IMG/VR virus record: IMGVR_UViG_3300025534_000006
Location: 1-64,000 of that record
Strand: one strand, 5' to 3'
DNA length: 64,000 bases
DNA from: a virus
Taxonomy: Duplodnaviria > Caudoviricetes
This document shows, in pieces, positions 16,587-53,336 of the stretch. The position numbers and the translations under genes were made by a program. Within the stretch, counting starts at the first letter, position 1; each line of letters opens with the position of its first letter. Below the pieces are notes generated by a model. The model saw nothing but the letters and a program-made list of their open reading frames with translations. It was not told the DNA's origin and made no database searches.

Positions 16587-17162
16587 TCAGCCCCGCCCGG
16601 ACGCCCGCTCGATGGCTTCGGCCTTGGGCACGAAGCCGATGATCTCGACATGGGCCGGGTCGAACACGCAAACCGAGAGGACCTCGGCGCCGCCCTTTCC
16701 GGCCTTCCGTTCCGCCAGCACCACCCCGCCGAAACCGGCATCCCGCAGGATTTGCTCCATGGCGACCTGCGTCGCCGGGTCCGTGAACCACGGAAGATGC
16801 CCGTCTGCCGCATAGGCTTCGAGGGCCTTGAACTGCCCGGCGTCCATGACCTCGGCCACTCGCCTGCGGTGGGCCGGGTTGGTGAAATCGAGTACCGCAT
16901 TGGGCGCTAGATGGATGCGGCACAGGTAGACGCCGCTGGCTTGGCCGGGGTAGCGCGCCACCGCGTAACCGGCGGCGTAGCGCCAGCCCTCCGGGCTTTC
17001 TTTGGTGAAGAACAGGCCGCCCATATCGCGCCCATTGCGGGCGCCCCGCCGGAAATGCCCGCCGACGAGGGTTGCCGGGCCGCCGTGGAGCCACAGGGCG
17101 GACGGGTCGTAGTAGGAACCGGCCGAAGCCTGTTCGACGATCTGGATGAGGCGGCGCATCAT
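16587..17162 (-). CDS. ART-PolyVal-like ADP-ribosyltransferase-fold protein with MRxLIxxVE leader
   Basis: MMRRLIQIVEQ; WLHGG, GLFFT, YA, LRDAGFGGV, VFDP.HV; TAAATA about 9 nt upstream. Confidence 0.6.
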   Translation of the reverse strand: MMRRLIQIVEQASAGSYYDPSALWLHGGPATLVGGHFRRGARNGRDMGGLFFTKESPEGWRYAAGYAVARYPGQASGVYLCRIHLAPNAVLDFTNPAHRRRVAEVMDAGQFKALEAYAADGHLPWFTDPATQVAMEQILRDAGFGGVVLAERKAGKGGAEVLSVCVFDPAHVEIIGFVPKAEAIERASGRG

Positions 17163-17170
17163 GGCCGCCG

Positions 17171-17177
17171 TATTTAT
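17171..17177 (-). promoter_or_regulatory. Late promoter TAAATA
   Basis: ATAAATA upstream of ART 17162. Confidence 0.6.
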
Positions 17178-17206
17178 TCGGCCGGACGGTCTGATATGCT
17201 TCGAGG

Positions 17207-17581
17207 ATGCGCTTCGAGGCTGACCCGCCGATTGTCCATACGGTCCACCCGGCACCGGGGGCCGCCATCGCGCTCACCATTTACGAATGGGCCATCCTGC
17301 AACGCATTGTCCGGGACGAACCGGTGCGCCTTACGCCCCATGCGGCCGAAGCGGTCGGGCGCCTCGCCGAGATGGGCCTGATCGAGCGCGTCGGGGAGCG
17401 GCTGACCGCGACCAAGCTCGCCCGTCACGCCCTGATGTTGTTGCGTTTTCAGGACGGCTATGAGCCGCCCGTGCTCGAATGGATGGACGAACCCTATCGG
17501 GACGCCGAGGAATGGCACCGCGTCTGCGAGGACATATTCCTACGGAACGCCGATCAGTGGGAGAAAATGGAAAGCGGGTGA
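17207..17581 (+). CDS. Hypothetical protein, possible winged helix
   Basis: L.EMGLIER pattern; GC3-rich. Confidence 0.55.
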   Translation: MRFEADPPIVHTVHPAPGAAIALTIYEWAILQRIVRDEPVRLTPHAAEAVGRLAEMGLIERVGERLTATKLARHALMLLRFQDGYEPPVLEWMDEPYRDAEEWHRVCEDIFLRNADQWEKMESG

Positions 17582-17628
17582 GGGGATGTGCTATGAGGAC
17601 ATGAAATCCCTTTTCAGAAAGCCTTTCC

Positions 17629-17907
17629 GTGCGCAACCCAGCCAACACCCTTGATTGCCTCTCGGAGGAGTGCTCCGAGGTCATCAAAGAGGTCTGCAAG
17701 ATTCATCGCTTCGGTCCGGATAGCGCCCACCCGGACGAGCCGGATATTCCCAACACCAAGCGCCTTGAGCAGGAGATCGGCGATCTGCTGGCCGTGGTCC
17801 AGCTTGTCGTCGAGGAGACCGGGCTCGGCCTGACCTATGCAGGCATCGAGGATGCCAAGACGCGGAAGCTCGCCAAGCTTGAACGCTACCTGCCCCGGAT
17901 CGACTAA
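17629..17907 (+). CDS. MazG-like NTP pyrophosphohydrolase
   Basis: EECSEVIKEVCK...EIGDLL acidic motifs. Confidence 0.75.
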   Translation: MRNPANTLDCLSEECSEVIKEVCKIHRFGPDSAHPDEPDIPNTKRLEQEIGDLLAVVQLVVEETGLGLTYAGIEDAKTRKLAKLERYLPRID

Positions 17908-17987
17908 CCGCATAATTCGGTTGCCAACGGCATTTTCTGTTGTAAGCTGATTCAATCAGGAGTTGAGTCGTGGGCCGGACCGGGGTC

Positions 17988-18893: not shown

Positions 18894-18921
18894 CCGAACC
18901 CACGCCCTTCGACGAAAGGCG

Positions 18922-19476
18922 TTAGACCGTACCGCTGGTCCGGAAGCTCTCCCCGGAGAGGTCCTCCCGCACGCGCTCGATGGCCCTGCCGTCCAATGTT
19001 GTCAGGGTCACCGAGCGCAGCACGACATGCCCGTCCGGCCGCATCCTGATCTCCTGCTCGCCATTGCCCCATAGGGCGATGGTGGCGAGCCAGTCCACCT
19101 GATCCACTCCCGCATCCGCCTCAAAGACGTAGTGGACGCGCGCCCGGCCATCATGGTTGTAGGGGTGGGCAAGGCGCCGCTCGGCAGTCCAGCTTTGGCC
19201 GAGGGAATCCCCGGCCGCCAAGGCACCTACGGTGCGCTCAGAGAGCACCATGGAGCGGTAGACAGTGATGCTATGCCTGCTCCCCACAAGGGCCTGTAGC
19301 GCCGTCTGCGCGGCTTTGACATGGGCGAGATCGAACGGTCCCGACAGACCGTCGCCGAGGTCCTCCCGGTGTTCCCAATCCTCGATATAGGGCAGGATCG
19401 CCTCGGGATCGTCGTACAGCCAGAGGACGCGCGCCCGGCCCTCCACGATGCGGATCAGGTCTCTCATGGTGGTCAT
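18922..19476 (-). CDS. Putative R-S-E-type ADP-ribosyltransferase-fold protein with leader
   Basis: MTTMRDLIRIVEG; TVYRS, LGQSWT, VDW, EQEI. Confidence 0.55.
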   Translation of the reverse strand: MTTMRDLIRIVEGRARVLWLYDDPEAILPYIEDWEHREDLGDGLSGPFDLAHVKAAQTALQALVGSRHSITVYRSMVLSERTVGALAAGDSLGQSWTAERRLAHPYNHDGRARVHYVFEADAGVDQVDWLATIALWGNGEQEIRMRPDGHVVLRSVTLTTLDGRAIERVREDLSGESFRTSGTV

Positions 19477-19512
19477 GGGGCAGTCCTTGGTTGGTGTGCG
19501 GCCTACTTCCGG

Positions 19513-20133
19513 TCAGCGACGCCGCTTCTTAGAAAAGAGGTCAAGATCGGGTGCCTCGGTTTCGGAAATCCGCTCAATCTTCCACTGCGGCAGGCGGCTA
19601 ACGAAGATAACACCACGCGGCGCCCAACCGCCTTTCGTCTTTGGCGCCACCACCAAAGGTTCGTCCCACCAGACACCATCAATACCGGTCTCATCTTCAA
19701 GGTAGACCGTCAAGGCAAGGTCAAAGGCATGATCCGGCATAGGCAACATGCCGCCGAGCCTGTCCCAGAGTGCTGATTGGCCGGTGACGCCATTCGTGCC
19801 TACCTTTGCCCGCCTCAGATAACCTTTCTGCTCAGCCCATGCGATCACCGCCTCTCGGTTCTGCTGGGTCATCGCATTGATGTCCACGAACTGGTTGCCG
19901 TCCTTCACCAGTCTCCACAGATCACCGTGGACCCAACCCCCGTCGATGTATCGCCAGACGTTGGGATGCAGCGACACCGAAAGACCGCTTCCCTCGAAAC
20001 TGATCTTCTGCTTGCGCAGCCGATTCATGGAACCGACGTGATAGAGCGCATCGAAAGATCGAATGGGGAAATCGGACCATGCCCCGACGCTCTCCACGAG
20101 GTTGATATAGTGTCGGAGGGTGCAAGCGGTCAC
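19513..20133 (-). CDS. Divergent ART-like protein with leader
   Basis: LRHYINLVES; LYHVG, GLSVS.HP, IDGVWW, RGVIF; TAAATA at 20162-20168. Confidence 0.45.
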   Translation of the reverse strand: MTACTLRHYINLVESVGAWSDFPIRSFDALYHVGSMNRLRKQKISFEGSGLSVSLHPNVWRYIDGGWVHGDLWRLVKDGNQFVDINAMTQQNREAVIAWAEQKGYLRRAKVGTNGVTGQSALWDRLGGMLPMPDHAFDLALTVYLEDETGIDGVWWDEPLVVAPKTKGGWAPRGVIFVSRLPQWKIERISETEAPDLDLFSKKRRR

Positions 20134-20161: not shown

Positions 20162-20168
20162 TATTTAT
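20162..20168 (-). promoter_or_regulatory. Late promoter TAAATA
   Basis: ATAAATA upstream of 20133. Confidence 0.6.
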
Positions 20169-20195: not shown

Positions 20196-20752
20196 TCAGG
20201 ATCGCGGGATACCCGCCTTCTCATACTGATCCCAGCCCCAAGGATATGTGGTGAGGTCGGCAACGTAAATCTGTGACGGGGGGGGATGATGCCCTGATAT
20301 CCAACGGCGTGGTAGTCCTAATCGAGCGACTGCTGCCAAGGCGACTTTTTCGCCAGTTCCAATGCCTCCTCGGCGGACAGCCCTTGCTCGCTTGCCAACT
20401 CCTTAGCGCGGTTTAGGATGAAGTCGTCATCGGCCACCAGCAGCGATGGATCGCGGATTTCGACATCATAGATGATCGGCTTCCCACCCAGCCTTTTTGC
20501 TTGCTGGGCAGCGTAGCGGAGCGCCAATGTCACAGAATCCGTCAGGTAAATCGTTCGATCCGTCCAGCCGGGGATGAACGAACTGTTCCCACGGAACGGA
20601 CTTTTCGACTCCACCTGTGGGATCAAACCGTCCCTCATAATCGAGGCGTGATGGAGAGAGGTGGTACCGTGATAAAGAGCCGGGATGAACTCGGATTGCT
20701 CGTGCAATCTGGCGCCTTCGACAATTCGGATCAGGTCTCTCATGGTGATCAT
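20196..20752 (-). pseudogene. H-type ART/Tpt1-like protein with leader; C-terminus disrupted by TAG and a C8 frameshift
   Basis: MITMRDLIRIVEG; LYHGT...IMRDGL...IYLT...ALRYA; TAG at 20318-20320 followed in frame by DYHAVGYQGIIP, then shifted PSQIYVADL... Confidence 0.55.
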
Positions 20753-20768: not shown

Positions 20769-21212
20769 TTAGGTCTCTGGCGGAGTTCCGACCACCGCCT
20801 TGATGGTCTTGGCTCCCTTGGCGAATGAAATCCCGATCCGATGGAAGCCATCCCAGACATGCACTTGTCCTTCGTAGATGGAGATGACGATGGGTTCCAC
20901 GATCTCCTGCGTCATCATGTCGGTGTAGCCCCGGTCGTGCCCATATTGCCCTATGAACGACGCGATCTCCTCCTTGATCCACTTTCGCCATTTGGCAGCG
21001 GACATGATGTGTGTGAACTTCGAGAGCGGGAACTCCGGCTCATAGCGCCATGATCCTTCCTCCGGATCGAAATACGCCGGGCTGCCATCGTCGTTGTCAC
21101 CCCGGACAAGCGCCGCATACTCCCGCAGTTCATCTTCGGACGCAGTGATCCATTGGTCAGAGGTATGCGATTCGACCAGCCTGATCAGGCCACGCATCAT
21201 TTGGGCAGTCAT
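20769..21212 (-). CDS. ParB/Srx-like domain protein with leader
   Basis: MMRGLIRLVES; EPIVI...VWDGFHR; TAAATA at 21241-21247. Confidence 0.65.
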   Translation of the reverse strand: MTAQMMRGLIRLVESHTSDQWITASEDELREYAALVRGDNDDGSPAYFDPEEGSWRYEPEFPLSKFTHIMSAAKWRKWIKEEIASFIGQYGHDRGYTDMMTQEIVEPIVISIYEGQVHVWDGFHRIGISFAKGAKTIKAVVGTPPET

Positions 21213-21240: not shown

Positions 21241-21247
21241 TATTTAT
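21241..21247 (-). promoter_or_regulatory. Late promoter TAAATA
   Basis: ATAAATA upstream of 21212. Confidence 0.6.
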
Positions 21248-21260
21248 CCGGATGCCGCAG

Positions 21261-22286
21261 TCAAATGATCGAATTGACCATGCCCATCGCAGGCGACGGG
21301 ACCGCGCCGTAAACCACCTTGGCGCCTGACGGACGAATGTCGATGATGCAGACGATGCGAGCCGGACCATCGAAGCCGACTGGACCCAGCAACCGGATGC
21401 TGTGTTGGTGCCCAAGATGCGGGTGGACCATGCGAGGATAGTGGCGAACCACCTGATCCTTGATTTCCATCCACCGCATATGATCGGTGTCGCCATAGCC
21501 ATAGACGGCATGGTCGGTCCAATAGGCCATGAGTTCGTCGAGGAGAGCTTGGTCCTTCTCGCCGCCACCGGCCCATTGGTGAAAGCGGTCGGCTATCTCC
21601 TGCCACTCGGGTGCGTCAGGCGTCGGACAACGCTCGGCGATCTCGTCGGCAATCTCCGCGAAGTTCCCGCCGAAATACTCCCCCGTGATCTTCTTCAACG
21701 CCATGTCGATCATGTCCTCGTCGGGCAGTATCGCGGCTCCGTCGTGGACCTCGATGACAATGAGAGCGGCGTTTCCCCAAAGACCATGGGCTGCCATGTG
21801 CCGCTCGATCACACTGGGCGTGTCGGTGGCGTAAACGCCCTCAAGGCTGTCCCAGCGACCATCATGGTAATTGCCGCCGCCATAGTTGGGTACCAGCCCC
21901 TTCTTCAAGATGGACCGAATGTTCTTGCGGGCGGTGACGTGTAGGAAGTATCGGGCACCAGCGACACCATTTGTGACAGGCATCGTGTGAGCGATGGCCG
22001 ATGCATACCTCCGAAGCTCGTCGTCGCTCTTGCCCTCGCACCGTTCGCGGACCTCGGCCTCGGTACGGCCCTCTTGGGTGTAGTGAGCGACCAAAAGATC
22101 GATCAGTTCCTCCCGGCTCATGCGCTGGACGCTTCGGCGTCCGGACGCTTCCACAAGCGTGGCTATCTCTGCGGTCTCGGGTCTGTCGAGAGAGGCGCCG
22201 CCCCGGTTCGACCGGGCGAACCAACGTTTAAAAGCGGGACTATCGACAAGGTTGCTTTTCGTCGCGCTCTCCACGAGATTGGGCAC
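21261..22286 (-). CDS. ART/Tpt1-like domain protein, start abutting IS end
   Basis: PNLVES, SPAFKRWF; YFLHVT.RKN..SILKKGL.P; GVYAT; ILPDED. Confidence 0.55.
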   Translation of the reverse strand: MPNLVESATKSNLVDSPAFKRWFARSNRGGASLDRPETAEIATLVEASGRRSVQRMSREELIDLLVAHYTQEGRTEAEVRERCEGKSDDELRRYASAIAHTMPVTNGVAGARYFLHVTARKNIRSILKKGLVPNYGGGNYHDGRWDSLEGVYATDTPSVIERHMAAHGLWGNAALIVIEVHDGAAILPDEDMIDMALKKITGEYFGGNFAEIADEIAERCPTPDAPEWQEIADRFHQWAGGGEKDQALLDELMAYWTDHAVYGYGDTDHMRWMEIKDQVVRHYPRMVHPHLGHQHSIRLLGPVGFDGPARIVCIIDIRPSGAKVVYGAVPSPAMGMVNSII

Positions 22287-22298: not shown

Positions 22299-22766
22299 TC
22301 ACGCAGCCACTAGGGCTTGTGTCGTCCCTGATTTCACGGGCGCCTCGCGGCGCTCGGATGACCTCACCACGGCAAACGGCACCCCACCGAAGTAGGGATT
22401 CGTCGTTCGTGGGTCGGCGGGCAGGCCCCGCTGCCCGGATCGGCCGAGCTTCGAAAGGCCCGGCCGTCGCTCAGACATGGGATGGCGGGCCGTGAAAGCC
22501 GCCACCAGATGCCCAAGGACTGCCGCCTTCCTCTGGAACACCGAACCGATAGGGAGCGCACGGCGCTCCCCGATGTTCGGCGCCGCATTGAGATCGGCGT
22601 GCTTGGTGTGGCCGCACCACAGGCAGGAGAACCTGCCCTGCGAGCGGCGATTTCGGGCGTCCACGTAGCCGCAGGCATTGCAGGTCTGGCTGCTGTATGC
22701 CGGGTTGACCTCGGTGGACGTGATGCCGAGCCGCTGTTCGAGGTCGGCCAACTTGGACTGGATGCG
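22299..22766 (-). pseudogene. tnpB: TnpB C-terminal fragment (RuvC end, Zn ribbon)
   Basis: IQSKLADLEQRLGI..TEVNPAYSSQTCNACG....R.SQGRFSCLWCGH..HADLNAA.NI; no own start. Confidence 0.85.
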
Positions 22767-23385
22767 GGTCCAGCACGCCATCGAGTGCCGAGGCGATGGC
22801 TTCCTTGCCGTGCGTCGGGATGACCTTCGCCACCACGTCGCCGCCCCGCTCTGCGGCCACCAGAACCAACGGGCGCTTCGTGCCGCGACCCTTGGTGTTG
22901 GGCGGAGGCGGCGGGTCGTCCTCGTGGTCGCGGGACGGCTTCGCCCGCTTCCGGGGCGGCGCCCCGGCATACATCTCATCGACCTCAATCACACCGGTCA
23001 GGATCGGGTTGGCCTCGGTCATCATCACGCGGATGCGGTGGCCCATGAACCACGCGGTCGGGTAAGACACGCCTAGCATCTCGCCCAGCTTAACGGCGCT
23101 GATGCCCTTCGAGGACGCCACGATCAGGTAGATGGCCTGCAACCACGACAGCAGGGGCACACGGGTCCGGTGCATGGGTGTGCCCGCCGTGACGGTGAAC
23201 TGACCGTCGCATTCGCGGCACGCCCACTTGCGCCGGGTGCCGATCCAACGTGCCCGGTTCACGGAGCCGCAGGATGGGCACTCCGGGCCGTGCGGCCAAC
23301 GGGCGCGCTCGAACCATGCGCGGGCGCTGTCCTCGTCAGGAAACAGGGCGTTGAAGGCGCGCAGGCTCAAGGCGGAACCGCTCAT
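22767..23385 (-). pseudogene. IS1595-family DDE transposase, truncated
   Basis: WFERARWP.GP.CPSCG, C.EC..QFTVTAGT.MH, YPTAWFMGHRIR, GVIEVDEMYAG, KGRGT; breaks after LDGVLDP. Confidence 0.85.
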
Positions 23386-23392
23386 AGGGTGG

Positions 23393-23421
23393 ATACTACC
23401 CCTATTTAGCTAGTGCGTCAA
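23393..23421 (-). promoter_or_regulatory. sigma70-like promoter in IS left end
   Basis: TTGACG-N17-TAGTAT upstream of transposase ATG; spacer contains CTAAATA. Confidence 0.55.
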
Positions 23422-29892: not shown

Positions 29893-29899
29893 CTAAATA
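29893..29899 (+). promoter_or_regulatory. Late promoter TAAATA
   Basis: CTAAATA upstream of kinase. Confidence 0.6.
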
Positions 29900-29904
29900 C
29901 GCGC

Positions 29905-30486
29905 ATGTACGCGCATGAAATTCTCCGTCTGGACGAACTGCGGCCATCCACGGCCAAGGAACTCACCCGGACCAACTGGTCCGGGCATGAGGCGGTCGCG
30001 GAATGGCTCACCCGGCACGGTTTTCGGCAGATCGGCAGCGGCTCCTACGGTTCGGTCTGGTCCGATGAATCCCGCGCCGTGGTGAAGGTTTTCCACCGCG
30101 ATCCCTGCTATGCCCGGTTCGCCGCGTACTGCCGCGACCACCGTGGCAACCCCCACCTGCCCAAGATCAGCCGTGTGTTCCCGCTGCCGCAGGACGGCGG
30201 CGTGGTCTTTATGGAACGGCTGGTGCCGCTCCCCGATGCGGTCGCCACGACATGGGCGCGCCTGATCAATACCTACAAGGATTTCCTGACGTTCAGGGGC
30301 TACATGCCGCCTGCGAAGCTGCAAGGCGACGCCGAAGCCTTTGCCCGGCGCTACCCCGCCTTGGCGCGCACCGTGCGCGAGATCGTGGACCTGTTCGAGG
30401 ATGGCGGGTGCCTGTTCGACATCCATGAGGACAATATCATGTCCCGCGACGGCACCGTCGTCATCATCGATCCGGTGATCGAGTAG
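29905..30486 (+). CDS. Protein kinase-like (ePK/APH fold)
   Basis: IGSGSYGSVW, VVKV, FMERL, DIHEDNIM, IIDP; CTAAATA 5 nt upstream. Confidence 0.75.
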   Translation: MYAHEILRLDELRPSTAKELTRTNWSGHEAVAEWLTRHGFRQIGSGSYGSVWSDESRAVVKVFHRDPCYARFAAYCRDHRGNPHLPKISRVFPLPQDGGVVFMERLVPLPDAVATTWARLINTYKDFLTFRGYMPPAKLQGDAEAFARRYPALARTVREIVDLFEDGGCLFDIHEDNIMSRDGTVVIIDPVIE

Positions 30487-36428: not shown

Positions 36429-37709
36429 TCAGAGCGGGACACAGACCTGATTGCCGTTGGGCAGCGTGCGACAGATGTACCCTTGCGGACACCGCGCCTG
36501 CGTGAGGCCGCTATCGGCCCACTGGGTGGAGGTGGCGATGACATTGCCCGACGGGTCATAGAGGACGAACGCCACGCAAGCCGGGTTGAGGTTGAAATCG
36601 TAGGTGTGGTCGGGATTACCAAGGTCGCCATTGCGCCCGAACACCGAGAGGTAGTGGGTACCGGCGTCAACCCAGAAGGTGATGCTGCCCGTGGTCTGAT
36701 TCGGCACTTCCCATGCCACGTCGATATTCGCATGGTGCGGTCCAAGCTGCTCGTCGAAGATCGTCGTGTTGTCGATTGCCACCCTCATGCAGTCGTCATA
36801 CCGGTATTCCATCCGGTAGACCCCCGAGACGGGAAAGTTGACGGGAACGGACAGGCCAACATCCGTGCCAATGAGTGTCGTTGCCTGCTGTGAGGGGAGG
36901 AACCAGATACCGTAAGTATTGGCGAACTCGGACCAAGAGTTCGAAGTGATGCGAAATGCGGTAAGGTACTCCGGGTTCGTGCCATCCGGGCCGGGCGGCG
37001 GCGGGATGCTGGCGTCGATCTCGAATTCAAAGGTGACGGTGCCCGATGTGGCGCTCCACCTGCCGCTGGGGTCGTTGGCGACGAAATACACCTCGACCCG
37101 GTAATGCCCCGTCCCGAGGGTATAGCTCACCGAGCCGCCGAGATGGTTGTTGGACGAATCGGCGGTATATGCGGAGCCGGTGGCATTGAGATGATATGGC
37201 GTGGCGGCGCTGGCTTGATCTTGGATCACGCCCGTCGGCAAGCCCGTGGACGACCAAAGGCGCGTGATCTTGGTATGCTGCACCACGTTGACTGTCGCTG
37301 GCATGACGGCGAACCGCGAAGGGAAGCGCACCACCGGGTAGCCGGGTGACAGGAACACCATATTGGCGGTCTCGGTGTAGGAGAGCCACGCGGCGGACAG
37401 CGTCATCGGCGAGGCGATGATTTCCAGAGACGGGATCGCCGACACGGTGCCAATGGTGAAGGGCTTGATGGGCTTGCCCTGCCCGAACATGCTCAGATTC
37501 GGCAGCGACACCGTACGGCCTTCCATGGCGGCGTGCGACGCGATGGCATTGATCAGGGCAGACCAGTGTGCGGCGGTCACGACGCTCCCCGCGCTCACCC
37601 TTTGGACCTCGGATGCAATTCCGCCGGACAGTTGGAAGATGGCGTGGTAGGTGTCCACGAGCGAGTTGAAGTCGCTGGCCTCGATGAGACCGTTCGTGGC
37701 GAAGGTCAT
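36429..37709 (-). CDS. Tail-associated protein with putative PA14-like domain and Cys-rich tip
   Basis: GVYRMEYRYDDCMRVAID; GTHYLSVFGRN; ends CPQGYIC...VCVPL. Confidence 0.55.
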   Translation of the reverse strand: MTFATNGLIEASDFNSLVDTYHAIFQLSGGIASEVQRVSAGSVVTAAHWSALINAIASHAAMEGRTVSLPNLSMFGQGKPIKPFTIGTVSAIPSLEIIASPMTLSAAWLSYTETANMVFLSPGYPVVRFPSRFAVMPATVNVVQHTKITRLWSSTGLPTGVIQDQASAATPYHLNATGSAYTADSSNNHLGGSVSYTLGTGHYRVEVYFVANDPSGRWSATSGTVTFEFEIDASIPPPPGPDGTNPEYLTAFRITSNSWSEFANTYGIWFLPSQQATTLIGTDVGLSVPVNFPVSGVYRMEYRYDDCMRVAIDNTTIFDEQLGPHHANIDVAWEVPNQTTGSITFWVDAGTHYLSVFGRNGDLGNPDHTYDFNLNPACVAFVLYDPSGNVIATSTQWADSGLTQARCPQGYICRTLPNGNQVCVPL

Positions 37710-37712: not shown

Positions 37713-38906
37713 TTACTTCGCTCCGATGACGGCGAAAACGAGCCCCTCGTCCTCGTCGTCCTTGTCCTCAAGGCACCAGCCGACCGAACCAATCACCATC
37801 CGAAAGAGCGCCTCCACGTTATCGGCGAGATCGGCGTCCTTCCCAATCGAGGTCGCCACGCCCGGCACGTCGCTCACCACGAGCCGGTCGCCCTTGCGCG
37901 CCTTGCCGGTCACGCGGACGCGGACCCGCCCAGCAAGGCAGATTGGCGGATGGGTGATATCGGACCCGGCTCCGGCATTCATCAGGTAGGCGGGCCGCTC
38001 CGATACGACGCCGAGGCATCCGTCATTCGGACCGGTCGTCTGGGTGACCTCCTTGGCGCCGCCGATCTTCACCAGCGTGCCGACCGGGTACGGCTGATCG
38101 ACCTCGTATCGCTCCGCCAAGTCGGCATAGAGCGCCTGCGTGGCCGTGCCGTTGAAGGTCGTCGCATAGATGGTGTTGAACTTGTTCGTGGCCGTGCCGA
38201 GATCGCCGGAGTAGGGACCTTGCCGGTTGAGGTTGTTGACATCGTTCTTGATGATGAAGTCGCAGGCGGTCGGGTTGATGACCCTGATGTCTCCTTGCAG
38301 TTCCAAGGACTGGACCCGCAGCTTCTTTTGGACGATGAGGTCGCCTTCGACCGTAAGGTCGCCCGTGATCGTGCCGCCTTCAATGTCGAGCTTGTCGGAC
38401 GGATCGAAGTTCCCGGCGTGCCAGACGGGATAGTTGCCGATCTTCAACGTGCCGCCGCCGACGGAGAGATCGCCGCCACTTTGCTGTAGCGTTACCAACT
38501 CGCGGTCGGGTGCGTGCAGGAACTCGATCCGCGCGGTACCGTCTAGCCGCACCAGCGTCAAGATGCCGTCGCTGTGCAACTCCACCCGGTCGGTGCCATT
38601 GGTCACCTTGAAGGAGCCGCTGATTTCGGAACGGTTGGTGAGGAGTTCCAGCCACTCGCCACTGGTTGTGCGCAGCTTGAGGCTGTCGAAATTGGTGTCA
38701 AACCAAAGCATACCGCTGACCGGATTGCCCGGCGGTGCGATGCCTGCGAAATTCTCAAGCAGGTACAGCGTGTTCTGGTTTACGGCCGGTCCGAAATTGA
38801 CCGAGCCGCGACCGATGAGGGTGATCGGGACAACGCCGTCCAGAAGGGTATTATCCGGAACATTGGCAACGAGGGTGCCGTCCCGGTGGGTGATTTGATA
38901 GGTCAT
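37713..38906 (-). CDS. Tail fibre/baseplate protein (paralog of 34860 N-terminus)
   Basis: ITLIGRG..FG...NQN..YLLENFAG..PP; ATQALYADLAERYE; PAYLMN; LAGRVRVRV. Confidence 0.8.
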   Translation of the reverse strand: MTYQITHRDGTLVANVPDNTLLDGVVPITLIGRGSVNFGPAVNQNTLYLLENFAGIAPPGNPVSGMLWFDTNFDSLKLRTTSGEWLELLTNRSEISGSFKVTNGTDRVELHSDGILTLVRLDGTARIEFLHAPDRELVTLQQSGGDLSVGGGTLKIGNYPVWHAGNFDPSDKLDIEGGTITGDLTVEGDLIVQKKLRVQSLELQGDIRVINPTACDFIIKNDVNNLNRQGPYSGDLGTATNKFNTIYATTFNGTATQALYADLAERYEVDQPYPVGTLVKIGGAKEVTQTTGPNDGCLGVVSERPAYLMNAGAGSDITHPPICLAGRVRVRVTGKARKGDRLVVSDVPGVATSIGKDADLADNVEALFRMVIGSVGWCLEDKDDEDEGLVFAVIGAK

Positions 38907-44298: not shown

Positions 44299-45081
44299 TC
44301 AGGATCGAAGGGCCTTGATCAGCCAGTCGTAGAAATCCTTGACCGTGTTGATGCCGTCCCGGCCCTTGATGATGATGGAGGCCGGGTCGAACACGAAATA
44401 GGTGTGGCCGTCCATGGTTCCGGCGGCTCGCCGGGTGGCGGTATCCTCTTTGAAGCGCACGCCCGTGTAGCCGCGCGCCTTGAGAGCATCGACGAATTCC
44501 GGGCGGTCCAGCAGCCACCACCAGCGATGGATGGGAATGCGAGTGTATTTCTGGCCGTCACGGGCAAGCAGGTCGAGACCGAGGCGGACGATATCACGCG
44601 GTGGGCTGGCGGCGTCGAGGATATGAGTGGCGTCCACGTAACAGGTCAGGAGTCGGTAGTTGGCGCTGCCATCTGCACGGTTCGCGCCGAAGTAGTGCGC
44701 CAACGGCTTCGAATCGGTGAGAAAGATGCCCTGATTGTCCACGCTGTAGGTCGCGCCCAAGAAGCCGAGGCTGCGCTGTCCCTTGGTCAGTCGGAAGCCG
44801 TCCTTCTGGATGAGGTCGGCGACCTCGTGCGGGGTTCCGTGGTAGAGTTCGATGTAGCCGGGGCCGGGCCGGTGGGAGGCCGCGATAACGGCCTGCATCA
44901 CGTCGTTCAGGTCTTTGACCTGATCACGCGGGACCTTCTTGATGGACGCCATGAAGGCGTCGAAAGAGGAGAGGTCCATGCCCCGCGTCAGGGCGTGAAG
45001 ATCGGCACCGGGCGGTACCGGGATGGTCGAGCCAGACAACGCCCGCTCGACCAACGCGATGTAATACGCAAGGTGCCGCAT
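44299..45081 (-). CDS. ART-PolyVal-like ADP-ribosyltransferase-fold protein with leader
   Basis: MRHLAYYIALVER; LYHGT, GIFLT, YFG, LKARGYTGV, YFVFDP. Confidence 0.7.
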   Translation of the reverse strand: MRHLAYYIALVERALSGSTIPVPPGADLHALTRGMDLSSFDAFMASIKKVPRDQVKDLNDVMQAVIAASHRPGPGYIELYHGTPHEVADLIQKDGFRLTKGQRSLGFLGATYSVDNQGIFLTDSKPLAHYFGANRADGSANYRLLTCYVDATHILDAASPPRDIVRLGLDLLARDGQKYTRIPIHRWWWLLDRPEFVDALKARGYTGVRFKEDTATRRAAGTMDGHTYFVFDPASIIIKGRDGINTVKDFYDWLIKALRS

Positions 45082-45082: not shown

Positions 45083-45676
45083 TCAGGCCGGGCGCTGAGT
45101 TCCGGGCGCGAAATCGAGGCGCAGGATGTTAATGGGCGACCCGGCCACGTGTGTGATCTCGCGCTCCTCCTCCCACCAGAACATAGCACGGGCGAGAGAG
45201 GTGGTCCAATCCACATTCTCATTACGAACCTGAGCGTAGAGAATGTGGCCGCCGCGATGGGCGGTGTGTGGGTTGGGCTCGGCGCCATAGGACCAATGCA
45301 CCCCGAGTGGTCTCGCTAGGTCGGCCGTTTTCGTGAGCCGCCGGGTGATCGGAATCACGTCTAATTTGGACGCCTCTGCAAGTGCGCGCCGGGCATAGGT
45401 GATCAGTGGCCCAAGATACTCCGCGACCATGGCAACCTGATGGTCCGTAAGCTCCTCGAAGGTCTGGGGCAGTTGCGGATCAAGCGGCTCGCCATGTTCG
45501 TCCTCGCCCCAGTCGATTTGGTCCCAATGGCCTTCCAGCACGTCGCGTAGGTCATCGACCTCCACATAGGCGCGCACCACGTCCTCGACAGTGACTAGGT
45601 CGAGAGATTTGTGTGCCATTGTGCGGCGGGTGACCGCTTCGACTAGATCAATCAGACTCCGGAGGTCGTGCGTCAC
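45083..45676 (-). CDS. Putative R-S-E-type ART-fold protein with leader (resembles 18922)
   Basis: DLRSLIDLVEA; ITRR, LGVHWS, VDW..SL, EEEREI. Confidence 0.5.
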   Translation of the reverse strand: MTHDLRSLIDLVEAVTRRTMAHKSLDLVTVEDVVRAYVEVDDLRDVLEGHWDQIDWGEDEHGEPLDPQLPQTFEELTDHQVAMVAEYLGPLITYARRALAEASKLDVIPITRRLTKTADLARPLGVHWSYGAEPNPHTAHRGGHILYAQVRNENVDWTTSLARAMFWWEEEREITHVAGSPINILRLDFAPGTQRPA

Positions 45677-46038
45677 GGTTTGTCCTGAATTTCTTTCTTG
45701 GCCTGCTTGCGGGCCTTGTCCTTAATCCGCTCGATCTCGGTTTCGGCCTGCTTGTCGCTGGTCTCCCGCTCCACTCCCTTGCCCTCGGTCGGGGTCAGGT
45801 AGATGCGGTCGCCCTCGATCTTCGAGACGGCCTTGATCCGAGACGGATCGAGCAGGTCGAGCACCAGCGCCCGGTCAACCACGATGCCGGGGCGGGTATG
45901 GCGAAGCTCGTCCACCATCTGCTGCACCGTCACGAAGGGCAGCTTGTGGGCGATCATCGGCGTGAGGATGTCGAGGGCAGCCTGTAGCAGGCTGCCCTTT
46001 ACATCCAGACCGTCTTGAAAGAGTTCCCAAAGGAGCAT
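45673..46038 (-). CDS. Putative head-associated protein
   Basis: MLLWELF start; in late operon. Confidence 0.6.
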   Translation of the reverse strand: MLLWELFQDGLDVKGSLLQAALDILTPMIAHKLPFVTVQQMVDELRHTRPGIVVDRALVLDLLDPSRIKAVSKIEGDRIYLTPTEGKGVERETSDKQAETEIERIKDKARKQAKKEIQDKP

Positions 46039-46063: not shown

Positions 46064-47266
46064 TTACTCCTTCGCCTCGGGGGCCTTGCCCCATACCATC
46101 GAGGCCACGAGCTTCTTCGAGGCGATCACCCCGTCGATCTTCTTCTTGGTCTCTTTGGCTCCTTTGACGTTCCCAGCCTTGCGCTGCGCCTGATAGTCCT
46201 TCACCCAGCCTGCAAGGCCGTTCTCCAACTCCGCCTTGGTCCGAGCCTCGGCATCGTTGCTTTCGGCCACGGGCTGCGGCGCCTTCTGGGGCGTCCCACG
46301 ACCGACCGGACCCTTGGGGGCCGGAGCCTGCTCCGGCGCCGCCTGCACACCCTTCTGACCTTGCTGGGAGGGCTGTCCGGCGGGCTTCGGGGGAGCCGGA
46401 GGGGTGGCGGGCTTCGCACCGGCCTGCGGCTGCTTCCGGCCCTGCGGTGCAGCCTTCTGCGCCTGCTGGGTAGCCCGCTCGGCCTCCGCACGGGCACGCA
46501 TATCGGCCGGGCTGAGCGGCTTCTGAGGCTGAGCCTCCGTTACCTTCTTGCGGCACGCCTTTTTCGCCTCGCGCACGATGCTCACCACATCGGCGGCGTC
46601 GATGGCATAGGCGGTGGCGGTATGGCGGAGCGCCTTGGCAGCATCGCGGGTCTCGGCCAGCGCCTTACGGAACGTACCCAGCACCAGCGCGTCCGGGTTC
46701 TTGGACTCGCGCAGCGCCTTGATGTTGCGCTCGATCAGGCGCTTGCCACGGGGCAGGGCGCTCTCCTTCCGTGCGCGACCGGCCGCGTTCTGCGCCGCGC
46801 CCAGTACGTCATCCTCGGCGTTGCCAGCCATATCCGGCTCGGGCAGTTCGACATCGCCATCACCGGGCGGCGCCGGAAGCTCGTTGCCCTCCGCATCCGC
46901 ATCGGCCTCTGGCGCGGGAGGCTCGGCGTCCATCGCATCGCCGTCCATCGCCATGTCGGAGGTGGCGCCGCCATTCACGGCCCGCTCAAGGCGCGCGATC
47001 TCGTTGCCAATGGCATCCTTGGCACCCTGAATGGCCTGCACGAGTTCGTCGATTTTCGTGGAGGTGACCTGCGAGAAGCTGTTGGCGGCGGAGGGGCCGA
47101 ATGCGTCCTTGAGGTGGTCCTGCATCGGCATGATGTCGTCGGCCTTCACCTTGGCGAGGTCCTCGGCCATATCCTGAAGTTTGTCGGCAATCGCCTTGGC
47201 ATTCAGTACGAGTTCGGACCGCTCAAGCGTGGACTCGATCAGTCGAGCCATGCGATTTTTGGTCAT
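46064..47266 (-). CDS. Putative prohead core/scaffold protein
   Basis: Acidic helical N-half, Pro/Ala-rich linker, repeated ExES-like sites. Confidence 0.55.
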   Translation of the reverse strand: MTKNRMARLIESTLERSELVLNAKAIADKLQDMAEDLAKVKADDIMPMQDHLKDAFGPSAANSFSQVTSTKIDELVQAIQGAKDAIGNEIARLERAVNGGATSDMAMDGDAMDAEPPAPEADADAEGNELPAPPGDGDVELPEPDMAGNAEDDVLGAAQNAAGRARKESALPRGKRLIERNIKALRESKNPDALVLGTFRKALAETRDAAKALRHTATAYAIDAADVVSIVREAKKACRKKVTEAQPQKPLSPADMRARAEAERATQQAQKAAPQGRKQPQAGAKPATPPAPPKPAGQPSQQGQKGVQAAPEQAPAPKGPVGRGTPQKAPQPVAESNDAEARTKAELENGLAGWVKDYQAQRKAGNVKGAKETKKKIDGVIASKKLVASMVWGKAPEAKE

Positions 47267-47592: not shown

Positions 47593-47599
47593 TATTTAT
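47593..47599 (-). promoter_or_regulatory. Late promoter TAAATA
   Basis: ATAAATA upstream of 47562. Confidence 0.6.
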
Positions 47600-47872: not shown

Positions 47873-48520
47873 TCAGTAGGAGCGGGACCCGGCGAGCTTG
47901 AAAACCCGGTTGCGGGCGGCGATGGCCTTCCGCTGCGCGGCGCCGTAGCGGTCCTCATAGATCGGAAAGCGCGGGCTGTCGGGATTCCGCGTCATCAGGC
48001 GCTTGAAATGGATCGCGTCGCCAAGGGCGGAGGCATAATCCTGCTCGGCGGCCAGCAGGTCCAATGCAGCCTTCGAATTGACCTGTCCGCCCTCATTGAG
48101 GATGCGGGCGAGGCCATGCGCGGCCTCGTAGAGCGTGAGGTCGGCGGCGATACGCTCGCTTTCACCGACGCGGCCGACATCATAGAGCTTGCGGTTGCCC
48201 TCGCCCCGGACGCGGATTTCCCACGGACCGATCCGGGCGCCCTGCTCGGTTTCCTCGGTGACCAACGCCTCGCGCAGTTCACGGTCGTAGCTTGCCCGGC
48301 TGGCGAGCGCCATAGCCGTGCCATCGGTGGCCGCCGTGAACCGCTCAAGGATGGCCTTCATGGCCGCAACTTCCGGCTTGGCCGAGAGGTCTGCCTCCCC
48401 GGACGGGATGGCGGGGGCGGCAACGGGATCGTCTGACGCCTCGGAGGCTTCCGGCATGGGGCAGCCCTCAAGGATTGCCTTGAGACGGGCCATCTCATTG
48501 ACTTCACGAGGGTCAATCAT
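47873..48520 (-). CDS. Hypothetical virion protein
   Basis: MARLKAILEG twice; GGAGAG RBS. Confidence 0.65.
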   Translation of the reverse strand: MIDPREVNEMARLKAILEGCPMPEASEASDDPVAAPAIPSGEADLSAKPEVAAMKAILERFTAATDGTAMALASRASYDRELREALVTEETEQGARIGPWEIRVRGEGNRKLYDVGRVGESERIAADLTLYEAAHGLARILNEGGQVNSKAALDLLAAEQDYASALGDAIHFKRLMTRNPDSPRFPIYEDRYGAAQRKAIAARNRVFKLAGSRSY

Positions 48521-50130: not shown

Positions 50131-50160
50131 CGTCTGAACCCTTAGGAAACCGGAAAAGGA

Positions 50161-50502
50161 TCAGAAATCGACCTTGGCGACGGTGGTGTTGTTGGCAGCG
50201 AAGCCCCAAGCACCAGCGTGCGCAACGATGGAGTCGGCCAGAGACGGGGTCACGTTGTCCCACGCGCCAGTGTGCTCGATGGCGAACTTCACAACCTTCT
50301 CGCCCGCCTCGGCGCCATCGGTGACCGACATGATCACCGGCTGACCGCGCAGGGCGATCACCTCGATCAGCTTGTCGAGGGCATTCTCGAACTTGCCAGC
50401 CGGAGCGGAGGCCAGATCGACAGTGGTGGTGACGGTGTAGAAGTCGAGGGCGCTACCGAGGTGGGCGCCAGCGGCGACGTGACCATTGACCTTCTGAGTC
50501 AT
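50161..50502 (-). CDS. Small virion structural protein (possible head decoration)
   Basis: Own late promoter, strong RBS and terminator; KVNG...G. Confidence 0.6.
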   Translation of the reverse strand: MTQKVNGHVAAGAHLGSALDFYTVTTTVDLASAPAGKFENALDKLIEVIALRGQPVIMSVTDGAEAGEKVVKFAIEHTGAWDNVTPSLADSIVAHAGAWGFAANNTTVAKVDF

Positions 50503-50538
50503 TGTGTATGTCCCTTTGAAAAGAGGTTTTGGTGCATC

Positions 50539-50545
50539 TATTTAG
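50539..50545 (-). promoter_or_regulatory. Late promoter TAAATA
   Basis: CTAAATA upstream of 50502. Confidence 0.6.
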
Positions 50546-50575
50546 TATTCGACCTTCAAAGCACTGCGCGTACCG

Positions 50576-51508
50576 TCAGGTAGACCGCTTGATCACCTTC
50601 GGCCCACGGTCCCCCTTCGGCGCCGGGTAGATCGACTTCGAATAGTCGTCGTCAAACCCCGCCCCGAGGCCACCGGCCACGGTCGCCACATTCGCGGCGG
50701 CGGTGGCGCCTGCGGTCGCGCCTTCCTTCGCGTGGAGCCGCTTGCTGATCGCGTGCGCGGCCAGCGCCCCGACCGCCCCGGCGGCGAGATGCGCGATCAG
50801 ACCGGTCCCGCGCTTCCGGTGGCCGCGTTCATGTGGCTCAAGGAAGGGCTCATCCTGCGCCTGCGCCCCGCAGCCCTCGCCCGTCTCCCGGTCGCAGACC
50901 CCGTGCAGTTCCAGATTGCCGTTCCGGGCGGCCCGGTTGAGGAGCGGGAGAAGCTCGCCCTTGGGGGCGCGGGACCGGAAGAATTGCAGCAGCCGGGTCA
51001 TCGCCAGCCTGCGTTCGTGAACCGTAAGGTCGGGCCATTCCATGATCAGCCGCCGCAGCGCCCGCATCGATCCGTTCCCGATTCGGAACATGATATCGAG
51101 CCGGACGAACAGCCGCGCGGTCTGATCCTCGAACCGCTGCTCTCGGGCACCCGCATTGAGCCAGTTCAGGATCGCGCCCTGCGAGACACGATGGTAATCG
51201 GCGAAGTCGTTGACATGCTTCGGGCCGTCCGGGTGATCCTGACCGATCAGTCCATGCAGGAGGGCATAGAGGTCGGTCGCATCCGTGCGCCAGCGACGGA
51301 AGTTGCCGGACGAGGCCGTCTTGCGGCAGATGATCCTTGCGTGAGCGGCCGTATCCGGCTCGCAAAGCAGGATGCGCAGGCCCAAGATGTGCAGGTAGGC
51401 CAGTTCCGCCAGTTCGTCGGCATCATAGGTCGCAAGCGCCTTCACGGAGGGTATCAGACGGCTCTCCGAAAGGGCGTTGAGCAGCGAAAAGCGCGGTTCC
51501 TCGCTCAT
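50576..51508 (-). CDS. Hypothetical virion protein
   Basis: LSESRLI; C-term EGATAGAT.AANVA. Confidence 0.65.
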   Translation of the reverse strand: MSEEPRFSLLNALSESRLIPSVKALATYDADELAELAYLHILGLRILLCEPDTAAHARIICRKTASSGNFRRWRTDATDLYALLHGLIGQDHPDGPKHVNDFADYHRVSQGAILNWLNAGAREQRFEDQTARLFVRLDIMFRIGNGSMRALRRLIMEWPDLTVHERRLAMTRLLQFFRSRAPKGELLPLLNRAARNGNLELHGVCDRETGEGCGAQAQDEPFLEPHERGHRKRGTGLIAHLAAGAVGALAAHAISKRLHAKEGATAGATAAANVATVAGGLGAGFDDDYSKSIYPAPKGDRGPKVIKRST

Positions 51509-52791
51509 TTTTTCAAGCTCAGAAGGGCGCCCCAGACGTTGGCGGCGAGATTGAGCTTCTGCTTCTGCACCTGCGCGGCGAAATCCTTCCAGTCGCGCGC
51601 CTTGGAGGCGATGTTGCTGACGGCCTCGACGGTTTCTGGCTTGAGGTTCGGGATTTTCGACAGCGCGTCCCTGATCTTCTGGACCGGAAGGCCGCTGGGG
51701 CGCTGTTGCTGTGCCGCCTGCTGCTGTGCCTGCGGCGGCGATTGCTGGGTCCGCTGCTGCGACGGGTTGCCCATCTGCAACTGCTTCGCCGTGGTGCCAT
51801 CCTCGTCCGGATGCGTGATGACCCCCGTGTTAAAGAGGTGCTGCGCCATCGCGGTGAAAAGCTTTTGCAGGTAGGCGCGGTCGAAGCCTGCCTCCCACAG
51901 CGCCTCACGCTCGGAGATGGCGATCCGCAACGCCTCGTGCAGGGCCGCCTTGCTGCGCACCTGATGCTCCACGAGGATGCGGGCGAGGCCAATTGCCAGC
52001 ATCAGCGGCTCGTAGCCTTCTTGGACACCAAGGCGCTGATTGGCGGTCTGGATCATGCGCATCAGGTTCGGCATCTTCTGCGTGAGGCGGGGTTCCCTTT
52101 CGAGGTTTCGCAGGAAGGTGAGCAGTCGTTTCTTCTCGCCTTCGCCACGCTCCAACGCGCTGGTGATCAGTTCCTTGGTGAGATTGAAGATCGCGCCCTT
52201 GGCTTTGCTGTCGAGCATCGGCTCACGGGTCGCCGCGAGCAGCTTGCTCATCGTCTTGATCTGGTAGTTGTCATACGGCGTCTTGCCCACGCCGCCGCCG
52301 AACATCCGCATCACGTCGCTGACCGCCGCCTTCCGGGCCGCCGTGCTTGCCGGTTTCGCCGGGGTCTCTCCGGCGTCTGCGGCCGGGTTCTTCTGCCCGG
52401 TCGGCGCGGTGGCATTCTCGGGCTTGGACGCACTGGGGCCGTCCAGCGTCGGCAGGTTGAGCTTCTGCCGGATCGCGTTGGCGGTCGGCAGCCAATTCGG
52501 GTCCTTTGCCAGACCTTCCTTGGTGTACCAGTCCACGGCTTCCCGGCCGTAGGTACGGGCGAAGAACTCGGCGATGGTTTCCGGATTGGTCTGGCGTCCT
52601 TCGCGTGCGGCGAAGCGCAGCCAGCGATTCATCATGTCCCGAACCGCGTGGTCGAGTTGCAGCTTGCCTTGTGCCGTCTCACTGCCGAAGGCGGCCAGAA
52701 CGGAATTCTTGGCCCGGTCCAAGGCGCTGCCTGCCACCGCCTTGAACGTGTCGAACGGACCCTCTTTGATTACATTGCTCACGGGGCTCAA
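51505..52791 (-). CDS. Hypothetical virion protein
   Basis: Long ORF coupled in late operon; Gln-rich linker. Confidence 0.65.
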   Translation of the reverse strand: MSPVSNVIKEGPFDTFKAVAGSALDRAKNSVLAAFGSETAQGKLQLDHAVRDMMNRWLRFAAREGRQTNPETIAEFFARTYGREAVDWYTKEGLAKDPNWLPTANAIRQKLNLPTLDGPSASKPENATAPTGQKNPAADAGETPAKPASTAARKAAVSDVMRMFGGGVGKTPYDNYQIKTMSKLLAATREPMLDSKAKGAIFNLTKELITSALERGEGEKKRLLTFLRNLEREPRLTQKMPNLMRMIQTANQRLGVQEGYEPLMLAIGLARILVEHQVRSKAALHEALRIAISEREALWEAGFDRAYLQKLFTAMAQHLFNTGVITHPDEDGTTAKQLQMGNPSQQRTQQSPPQAQQQAAQQQRPSGLPVQKIRDALSKIPNLKPETVEAVSNIASKARDWKDFAAQVQKQKLNLAANVWGALLSLKK

Positions 52792-53048
52792 TCCTTCTTC
52801 TTCTTGCCTTCGCGGATTGCGCGGACCCGGCGACGGAATTTCTCCTCATCCCCGCTCTGGATGGCACGGACAAGACGCTTGCTGAGGTCGTCGGCCGTCT
52901 CGCTGTCGTAGCTCTCGCGGATCAGCCGCAGGACGTTCAACGCCGAGGCGATAACCTGCTGCCCCCGCATTTCAATGAGCAGGTCGCGGTTGCGGTTGGG
53001 TGCGTAGTCGGAGAGTTCCTCTACGATGCTGCGGAAGCGTTGTTCCAA
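52788..53048 (-). CDS. Jumbo-phage-type hypothetical protein
   Basis: RSIVEEL...LLIE.R..QVIASA.N...IRESYD. Confidence 0.7.
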   Translation of the reverse strand: MEQRFRSIVEELSDYAPNRNRDLLIEMRGQQVIASALNVLRLIRESYDSETADDLSKRLVRAIQSGDEEKFRRRVRAIREGKKKKD

Positions 53049-53051
53049 GGC

Positions 53052-53336
53052 TTAGTCCCCCTCGGTATGCCGACGGATCAGGTTCTCGACCATGTCGGCG
53101 GCGCGCTGCATTCCCAGTTCGACGCCAAGAGCCTGCTCGCTGTCCTCATTCTCGGTGTGTGAGCGAAGCTTGAAAGCCAAATCGCGCAGGTCGGCTATGA
53201 TCGGCGGCTCGGACACCGGGAGTGCTTCATCCGATGTATCCTGATCCTCAAGGACGCATTCGCTCGCCGAGGGCAGAAGTTCCTCGGCGAGCAAGATGTA
53301 CCCACGCATTTCGGTGATGAAGGTATTGTCGTTCAT
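53052..53336 (-). CDS. Small acidic late protein with leader-like N-terminus
   Basis: MRGYILLAEE; TAAATA at 53358-53364. Confidence 0.65.
   Translation of the reverse strand: MNDNTFITEMRGYILLAEELLPSASECVLEDQDTSDEALPVSEPPIIADLRDLAFKLRSHTENEDSEQALGVELGMQRAADMVENLIRRHTEGD

Follow-up and report, generated by a model that had tools for sequence, protein, structure and literature searches.

The capsid-targeting sequence (CTS) of the internal proteins of bacteriophage T4 was reportedly described by Mullaney and Black in 1996. In this phage, N-terminal propeptides of 10–19 residues on IPI, IPII, IPIII and Alt take these proteins to the prohead core and are removed by gp21 (PMC9026906, PMC9958956, PMC3012670). 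Targeting by the IPIII sequence involves residues 4 and 7, and its processing residues 8 and 10 (PMC9026906), and foreign proteins can be loaded behind a CTS that gp21 then removes (PMC9026906, PMC9958956, PMC10229621). The protease cuts at ITE-6, LTE-619 and LIE-9 (PMC5694885, PMC9026906), the former two being sites in Alt, a packaged ADP-ribosyltransferase (PMC5694885). By pattern search we found that T4 ipII and ipIII both start MKTYQEFIAE. Here we describe a short N-terminal leader that is common to otherwise dissimilar genes in a 64,000-nucleotide window of phage DNA (the whole stretch analyzed; positions 1 to 64,000 of IMG/VR record IMGVR_UViG_3300025534_000006), and that is probably a diverged capsid-targeting propeptide of the T4 type.

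Cleaved propeptides are also known from phiKZ, 201phi2-1 and SPN3US, whose inner-body and ejection proteins are cut by gp175/gp245 at S/A/G-x-E (PMC5694885, PMC10052503). Furthermore, gene context has led to the proposal that ADP-ribosyltransferases are packaged in the heads of myoviruses (PMC9503650). For the window itself, an original prediction made from its letters had proposed a modular address tag, ending in Glu, that loads a set of enzymes into the head for ejection with the DNA.

Our window covers the opening 64 kb of a viral contig that is 85,780 bp long, has a G+C content of about 62% and is rated 17% complete by CheckV. A 484,642-bp contig encodes proteins that are identical to proteins of the window, and the 85,780-bp contig is therefore a fragment of a phage of about half a megabase. 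Its DnaB-type helicase has 54% identity to the counterpart in Agrobacterium phage Atu_ph07 (490 kb); for Sinorhizobium phage Phosso and the PA5oct group the identity is 46–50%. The region from 42 to 66 kb is collinear with 24–63 kb of Atu_ph07, and the 42–54 kb part is syntenic with the Atu_ph07 virion cluster gp31–69. By DnaB identity and synteny the contig groups with Atu_ph07, its nearest cultured relative, and with the Rak2-like phages. A DnaB-based search for closer viral relatives returned one contig, which was not syntenic; a metagenomic relative that we used for comparison is G001, a 376-kb contig that is 93% complete.

The strict pattern [ML]R.[LYF]I.[ILV]VE, run on the six-frame translation of the whole contig, gave 6 matches, all at the N-termini of minus-strand open reading frames (ORFs; 17159, 19467, 20118, 20743, 21197 and 45664). 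Scanning all six frames of the 85.8-kb contig with an iterated 10-column position matrix, we found 12 matches with scores of 26.1–33.0, compared with 11.5 for the next real match and a maximum of 13.7 in a reversed-sequence control. Each of the 12 lies on the minus strand, 0–10 residues past an ATG or GTG, in ORFs that span 85–762 residues. Eight begin inside the window, in genes that we call A (17162), B (19476), C (20133), D (20752), E (21212), G (45081), H (45676) and I (53336). Four more begin past its end (83042, 84244, 84993 and 85721), among them a 765-residue multi-module carrier at 80745–83042. The leader genes are thereby scattered over 17–22 kb, 45 kb, 53 kb and 83–86 kb. With these scores, and with every match N-terminal, the common leader put forward by the original prediction is real. 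It had listed nine leaders in the window: the eight that score, and a ninth at 22286 (gene F) that proved to be a truncated remnant retaining PNLVES only.

Across the 12 copies the consensus reads M-T-x-[LM]-R-x-[LYW]-I-x-[LI]-V-E (for example MSDLRKFINILNES), with the leader Glu at residue 10–18 from the start codon in genes A–E and G–I. All 12 terminate in [LI]-[VAI]-E, which is the (L/I)-x-E type of site cut by gp21. Synonymous codons vary freely among the leaders (Leu as CTC, CTG, CTT or CTA; Arg as CGC, AGA, CGA, CGT or CGG; Val as GTC, GTG or GTT). The leader is therefore conserved at the protein level, with selection acting on the peptide rather than at the DNA or RNA level, and an RNA-level element was ruled out as its function. 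A Sec or Tat signal peptide was also rejected by inspection: the 10–18 residues have a charged or polar residue every 2–3 positions, end in Glu and lack a hydrophobic core of some 10 or more uncharged residues behind a basic N-region. In the matrix scan the replication and nucleotide-metabolism genes of the contig had no leader. The claim that the leader precedes unrelated domains also held, in that blastp found no similarity between the cargo bodies past the leader except for D and F (E 2e-8), with weak matches between A and G (E 0.047) and between B and H. The leaders of B and D, whose genes are 1.3 kb apart, are identical at 12 of 13 residues.

The nine genes A–I are all on the minus strand, and their leaders are written here with a slash after the Glu. 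Gene A (16587–17162; 191 residues) starts MMRRLIQIVE/Q (matrix score 27.5–30.7), has TAAATA 8 nucleotides upstream (17171–17176), and gave no match in Pfam or PHROG. Gene C (19513–20133; 206 residues, GTG start) carries MTACTLRHYINLVE/S (score 33) and has TAAATA 28 nucleotides upstream (20162–20167). An AlphaFold model of C, built with 20 homologues, has a predicted local distance difference test score (pLDDT) of 83. In this model the leader is a separate helix (residues 3–19, pLDDT 63–72) and the core begins at about residue 24; structural alignments to the model begin at residues 12–28, mostly 17–28. The top fold matches all belong to the ADP-ribosyltransferase (ART) superfamily (RES, MbcT, the catalytic domain of diphtheria toxin, exotoxin A and Tpt1). 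Because Z reaches only 6.9, we assign the predicted ART fold to the C body (the HVG...LSVSLHP family) with moderate confidence. Gene B (18922–19476; 184 residues; MTTMRDLIRIVE/G, score 29) is the second gene of the C-B operon. A search for its homologues among 5.8 billion proteins found none but itself, and language-model/Atlas feature matches (DRAT 0.93, NarE, Mod_ADP_RT) provide, as a lead only, that its body looks like an ART of the R-S-E type.

Gene D (20318–20752; 144 residues; MITMRDLIRIVE/G, score 29), second in the E-D operon, matches Pfam PARP with E 4.4e-5 and 23.5 bits, under the cut-off of 26.7, and its body is predicted, below that cut-off, to be a PARP-like ART. Gene E (20769–21212; 147 residues; MTAQMMRGLIRLVE/S, score 28–31), with TAAATA 28 nucleotides upstream (21241–21246), has a body in which the motif WDG[FW]HR is invariant among homologues; these start MRDLMMIVES or MRLTEA, or are without a leader. 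The E body is possibly ParB_N-like, as language-model/Atlas comparison suggests (features 0.96, structural template modelling score 0.59). Pfam ParB matched neither E nor any member of its family, and the structure model of E (pLDDT 52) was too poor for a fold search. The ParB-like call of the original prediction for E came down to the WDGFHR motif and the language-model lead.

The remaining scoring genes of the window are G, H and I. Gene G (44299–45081; 260 residues; MRHLAYYIALVE/R, score 26–28), whose start overlaps the stop codon of H, has a weak Pfam match to ART-PolyVal (E 0.011, 17 bits, under the cut-off). Gene H (45083–45676; 197 residues; MTHDLRSLIDLVE/A, score 26–27) has a GTG start coupled to the upstream stop and gave no Pfam or PHROG match. 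Gene I (53052–53336), which encodes an acidic protein of 94 residues, has a longer leader (MNDNTFITEMRGYILLAE/E, score 27–30) and TAAATA 21 nucleotides upstream (53358–53363). By synteny it holds the position of Atu_ph07 gp69 beside the DnaB helicase; gp69 itself starts MSYTGDLREYIRALSYITEG and was found in virions by one peptide.

Gene F (21261–22286; 341 residues) is a PARP-like paralogue of D that retains the leader tail PNLVE/S, scores below the matrix threshold and has a GTG as its sole possible start. Between F and a TAAATA box at 23403–23408 sits a transposase/TnpB remnant (22299–23409, minus strand; ORFs 22471–23385 and 22299–22988), which probably removed the first codons of F and parted it from its promoter. 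With the last six leader residues and the GTG start as all that remains, F is perhaps a cargo gene in decay, or one that has been silenced.

Homologues in other phages indicate that the leader is a property of the phage. The conserved domain of the C family, compared over 51 homologues, starts 'lP.rsF..lyHVG' and the part that precedes it varies: some carry a leader of the window type (MDMRRTIQLIES, MDVRRAINLVES), and others have different short leaders (MRLHEIA, MRYSEILLEA) or none. The E family likewise has other leaders or none. In G001, at least 10 ORFs start with M[RK]L.[DNQ]L.E, with scores of 24.5–31.9 against a control of 17.1, and three of these ORFs are orthologous to cargo genes of the contig. 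The G001 ORF at 110814, which starts MKLSNLYEA, is homologous to C (E 2e-26), and the one at 15495, which starts MRLFDLFEA, to the gene at 85721 (E 1e-21); in both pairs the alignment begins right past both leaders. The gene at 84993 matches G001 368457 (starting MRLQDITEG; E 2e-9) inside the body, from residue 64 against residue 6 of the G001 ORF, and the gene at 84244 matches Atu_ph07 gp482 (starting MRWNDLLEN; E 6e-4) well inside the body. At three metagenomic loci, neighbouring genes have a local, lineage-specific leader in common: MNPLRLYIRKIIKES and MNPLRLYIRRIISEA at L124, MRINEIIVES and MKMNEIILEA at L126, and MKFLIKQLLREG and MKSTIKQLLRER at L113. Since homologous cargo elsewhere has the leader of its own phage or none, the tag is tied to the phage and is independent of the cargo.

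Other searches for relatives returned little. The C family had one match in a cultured phage (Dolichospermum phage Dfl-JY45), the cultured phages searched had no match to B or to the 7-kb cluster, and single-protein searches of viral contigs found no relatives of B or C. A degenerate DNA pattern of the leader, run over IMG/VR, hit at least 50 loci, nearly all of them chance matches in low-GC contigs, and was abandoned.

A boundary similar to the leader end recurs in fusion proteins. Members of the C family are fused to ParB, GNAT and YafQ-like domains, and in C-domain fusions the joint ends in x-x-E, 3–8 residues before the domain, as the leader does (for example ..AFNEA/KDGLP and ..LQED/TKMP). 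The first of these mirrors a stand-alone protein that starts MKITDFINEA/KDGLP. In addition, long polyproteins of marine phages (loci L125, L127–L129, L134, L147 and others) have the ART-fold domain of this family at their C-terminus, preceded by a conserved joint, ..NEA/KDGLPVKTL or ..VQED/QSPALPV. The joints suggest that these polyproteins may be cleavable strings of enzymes present in many uncultured phages.

To relate leaders to particles, we turned to Atu_ph07, for which 131 virion-associated proteins of 714 have been reported by electrospray-ionization tandem mass spectrometry (Attai et al. 2018, Table S5; PMC6102473). Blind clustering of N-termini and reading of the annotated genes gave three leader classes: M[RK]WxQL[TN]E (gp53–62, gp196, gp381, gp408 and gp482; MRWEQLTE is an example of this Atu_ph07 type), MRL[IF][DQ]LLE (gp43 and gp63), and MS.LRK[FY].NI..ES (gp33, gp206 and gp594), the last of which resembles the window leader apart from a one-residue insertion or deletion. 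After matching ORFs to Table S5 by calculated mass (within 0.01 kDa), we found all 19 leader proteins in the published virion proteome (19/19; PMC6102473), a hypergeometric enrichment of p 3e-15, or 2e-7 when the tandem cluster is counted once and 9 independent loci remain. Many were detected with 30–65% coverage and 7–31 unique peptides. Judged by protein family, some of these carriers are enzymes, such as gp53 (Zeta_toxin, 54 bits), gp196 (Amidoligase_2, 30 bits) and gp381 (ART-PolyVal-like, 21.7 bits). Others, gp54–62, are tandem paralogues.

Some Atu_ph07 carriers ran below their predicted mass in the published gel: gp53 (87 kDa) in band 9, gp482 (31.7 kDa) in band 12 and gp594 (23.9 kDa) in band 13. 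Our own reading of this table, in which the cut site is not located, suggests proteolysis in the particles. Both relatives encode a protease of the Peptidase_S77 family, to which T4 gp21 belongs (77.5 bits in Atu_ph07 and 80.9 bits in G001). The genes for gp205 and gp206 directly follow that of the Atu_ph07 prohead protease gp204 (MF403008.1, 165229–166637; locus L102); the two proteins start MDFRQIRALLEG and MSIRKFLNIINES, respectively, and both were detected in virions. We regard them as candidate core or scaffold proteins with the same address as the cargo.

On the contig, a matrix of the MRLxDLxE/MRWxQLTE type found nothing above control beyond a marginal 14.4 (against 13.4) at 13764–14085. 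Judged by these scans, the phage fragment uses a single leader class only. The ORF at 13764–14085, which has TAAATA 22 nucleotides upstream and starts MNTNDILED, is possibly a lone carrier of the other class. Separately, a 193-residue ORF at 29894–30486 has TAAATA 5 nucleotides before its ATG and the N-terminus MYAHEILRLDE; this has no score with either matrix, but with L-x-E at its end it may represent another kind of leader.

The leader genes are further linked by TAAATA boxes. The T4 late promoter is TATAAATA. We counted 25 TAAATA sites in the window where 2.83 were expected, a nine-fold excess (the largest value among shuffles was 8), nearly always intergenic and 1–37 nucleotides upstream of a start on the same strand. 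The minus-strand boxes at 17171, 20162, 21241, 23403 and 53358 are promoter-like. The placement of the leader genes downstream of TAAATA, as originally predicted, was borne out: boxes stand directly before A, C, E and I, as well as before two carriers beyond the window, and others head the operons that hold B and D (second genes behind C and E), G and H. For the last two, the box at 47593–47598 (minus strand) heads an operon that runs from 47562 through gene J and 45673–46038 to H and G. Atu_ph07 has a weak match to gp55 (PMC6102473, Table S3). Units headed by TAAATA would presumably be expressed late.

Two neighbours named in the original prediction as having related endings did not hold up: neither MARLIES (47266) nor MARLKAILEG (48520) scores with the matrix, both differ from the leader, and the genes concerned, J and K, were rejected as carriers. 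Gene J (46064–47266, minus strand; 400 residues) matches phrog_14154, a virion structural protein (E 2e-24), and is homologous to Atu_ph07 gp44 (E 4e-17). The homology is at the N-terminus, where RLIE/S of J aligns with KLIE/H of gp44, and RLIE/S may be a protease site. J has half the length of gp44 and a long low-complexity tail rich in Ala, Pro, Gln and Lys; gp44 (86 kDa) is in the Atu_ph07 virion proteome, with its peak in gel band 10. Gene K (47873–48520, minus strand; 215 residues) is a homologue of Atu_ph07 gp45 (blastp E 3e-7), which is not in the Atu_ph07 virion table. Elsewhere in the window, the tandem paralogues 36429–37709 and 37713–38906, of about 400 residues each, have TAAATA 26 nucleotides upstream, and their N-termini read MTY(Q/R)I.(H/R)RDG. 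At their ends they match the Atu_ph07 ORF at 126456 (607 residues), and they are probably fibre or structural proteins.

We consider it probable that the leader is a phage-specific capsid-targeting propeptide of the T4 type, diverged and far more widely used, for which the virion evidence comes from the relative Atu_ph07. The leader genes would be transcribed late from their TAAATA promoters. The amphipathic leader helix would then bind the assembling prohead core, so that whichever protein follows becomes enclosed within the head, and a prohead protease of the gp21 family would cut after the Glu of [LI]-x-E to free the mature enzyme. The cargo so freed would comprise several types of ART fold, possibly a ParB_N-like protein, and others, and would be ejected together with the DNA when the next cell is infected. 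Core binding, head location, cleavage after Glu, ejection and late timing are steps that we infer. The main support for the proposed modular tag, which would load enzymes into the virion, comes from the Atu_ph07 proteome and from leader swapping between orthologous cargo. The S77 proteases of the relatives and the [LI]-x-E ends also support it.

Several points weigh against this interpretation. The cargo assignments of B, E and G are below curated thresholds, and the hydrophobic register of the T4 CTS differs from that of the leaders here. No gene for a gp21-family protease, capsid or portal was found on the 85.8-kb fragment, a result that is uninformative at 17% completeness. The window matrix did not detect the Atu_ph07 or G001 leaders, including the type-2 leaders of Atu_ph07 (a one-residue insertion or deletion), and their homology is a judgement. 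The published Atu_ph07 table consists of peptide counts and gel bands only. Finally, the Atu_ph07 particles were purified with polyethylene glycol only, and likely contaminants (RecA-like, ribonucleotide reductase) are listed; 'virion-associated' is therefore not proof of a location in the head.

This last point also favours a reading in which the leader is an intracellular signal (an inhibitory pro-peptide, a degron, or a localization or assembly tag) and the virion association in Atu_ph07 reflects contamination by abundant late proteins, since non-structural proteins with a single peptide are listed too. ARTs and Zeta-like kinases are moreover potentially toxic to the cell that produces them, which makes an inhibitory pro-peptide plausible. 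Such a role is compatible with targeting, however, and as an alternative to it the signal reading appears quite improbable to us: every one of the 19 carriers was detected, many at the coverage and peptide counts given above, carriers lie in virion gene clusters, gp205 and gp206 adjoin the prohead protease, and the replication and nucleotide-metabolism genes of the contig are free of the leader. A common N-terminus could also be a functionless remnant of duplication or recombination among paralogues, as the near-identity of the B and D leaders on nearby genes and the tandem array gp54–62 might suggest. This was disfavoured already and is very hard to credit, because the bodies are dissimilar while the synonymous sites of the leaders have diverged freely, which argues that the peptide itself is selected, because orthologous bodies elsewhere carry a different, locally common leader, and because the leader genes are dispersed along the contig.

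In a further alternative, the leader does direct proteins to the virion and is never cleaved, persisting as a permanent helix that docks the cargo on a structural partner, be it inside the head or in the portal, tail or whiskers, with the Glu as part of the binding surface. The presence of carriers in Atu_ph07 virions is silent on cleavage, and in T4 an Asp at position 10 stops processing while targeting persists (PMC9026906). We nevertheless think permanent docking unlikely. All 12 leaders and all Atu_ph07 and G001 leader types end in [LI]-x-E, the x-x-E boundary recurs at fusion joints, the relatives encode gp21-family proteases, and the gel bands of gp53, gp482 and gp594, far under their predicted masses, imply proteolysis in the particles.

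If the leader is a cleaved capsid-targeting propeptide, it marks proteins that travel in the capsid, and many unexplained genes of huge phages would become a defined "first-strike" set of ARTs, Zeta-like kinases, amidoligases and nuclease-like proteins that arrive together with the DNA. This would explain why the virion proteomes of Rak2- and Atu_ph07-like phages contain more than 100 proteins, would extend the T4 capsid-targeting principle to a much wider group of phages, and would give short natural tags with which foreign proteins could be loaded into large capsids. Atu_ph07, a cultured phage, allows the idea to be tested. More tentatively, and with considerable doubt, megaphages of the T4 superfamily might use a plug-and-play code in which orthogonal leaders, one set per lineage, are read by each phage's own prohead core and clipped at [LI]-x-E, with enzymes as interchangeable cargo, be they stand-alone or joined into polyproteins that have this site at every joint. 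In that case the injected proteome of such phages would be readable from sequence, and the class of a leader might determine the copy number of its cargo, the sub-compartment or when it is ejected relative to others.

How do these leaders compare with the described systems? In phiKZ-type phages a distant relative of gp21 cuts the head cargo of a giant phage on the C-terminal side of Glu, as would happen to the cargo here, and a common N-terminus has a parallel in the SPN3US paralogues gp53 and gp54, which have an identical 15-residue N-terminus. Unlike those phages, which have Ser, Ala or Gly at P3, the leaders here have Leu or Ile in 12 of 12 cases; most of the phiKZ-type propeptides also exceed 100 residues, and the phage lineage is different. 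With the polyvalent proteins and head-packaged NAD+/ADP-ribose enzymes of phages (Iyer et al. 2017; PMC9503650 and PMC7824862) the cargo shares its domains (ART-PolyVal, PARP-like, Zeta toxin, GNAT and ParB-like), the predicted carriage in the virion and the predicted injection with the DNA. Polyvalent proteins differ in being giant fusions thought to be anchored through MuF or the portal, whereas the genes here are mostly stand-alone, each with a short leader: the window carriers have 94–341 residues, and the Pfam scan found no MuF family among them. A term search of PMC9503650 and PMC7824862 found no N-terminal address tag. In the literature covered by our term searches, the principle is known from T4, and a short address leader in these megaphages was not described.

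The T4 CTS is the closest comparison, and several differences set it apart. The leaders here have no sequence identity to MKTYQEFIAE, and would be either an analogue or a far-diverged relative. Within 86 kb the tag marks 12 or more genes, most of them for enzymes, where T4 has it on three small basic proteins, and three leader classes coexist in Atu_ph07. The boundary also recurs inside multi-enzyme fusions. In other respects the two agree closely. Both have a short N-terminal peptide (10–19 residues in T4 and 10–18 here) on unrelated proteins of one phage, which is amphipathic and ends in [LI]-x-E, and the T4 cargo too includes a packaged ADP-ribosyltransferase. Both are on late genes, on the timing presumed here, in lineages with a gp21-family protease (Atu_ph07 and G001), and the diverged leaders of the relatives stand on diverse cargo, as do the 'CTS-like' proteins of the T-even phages.

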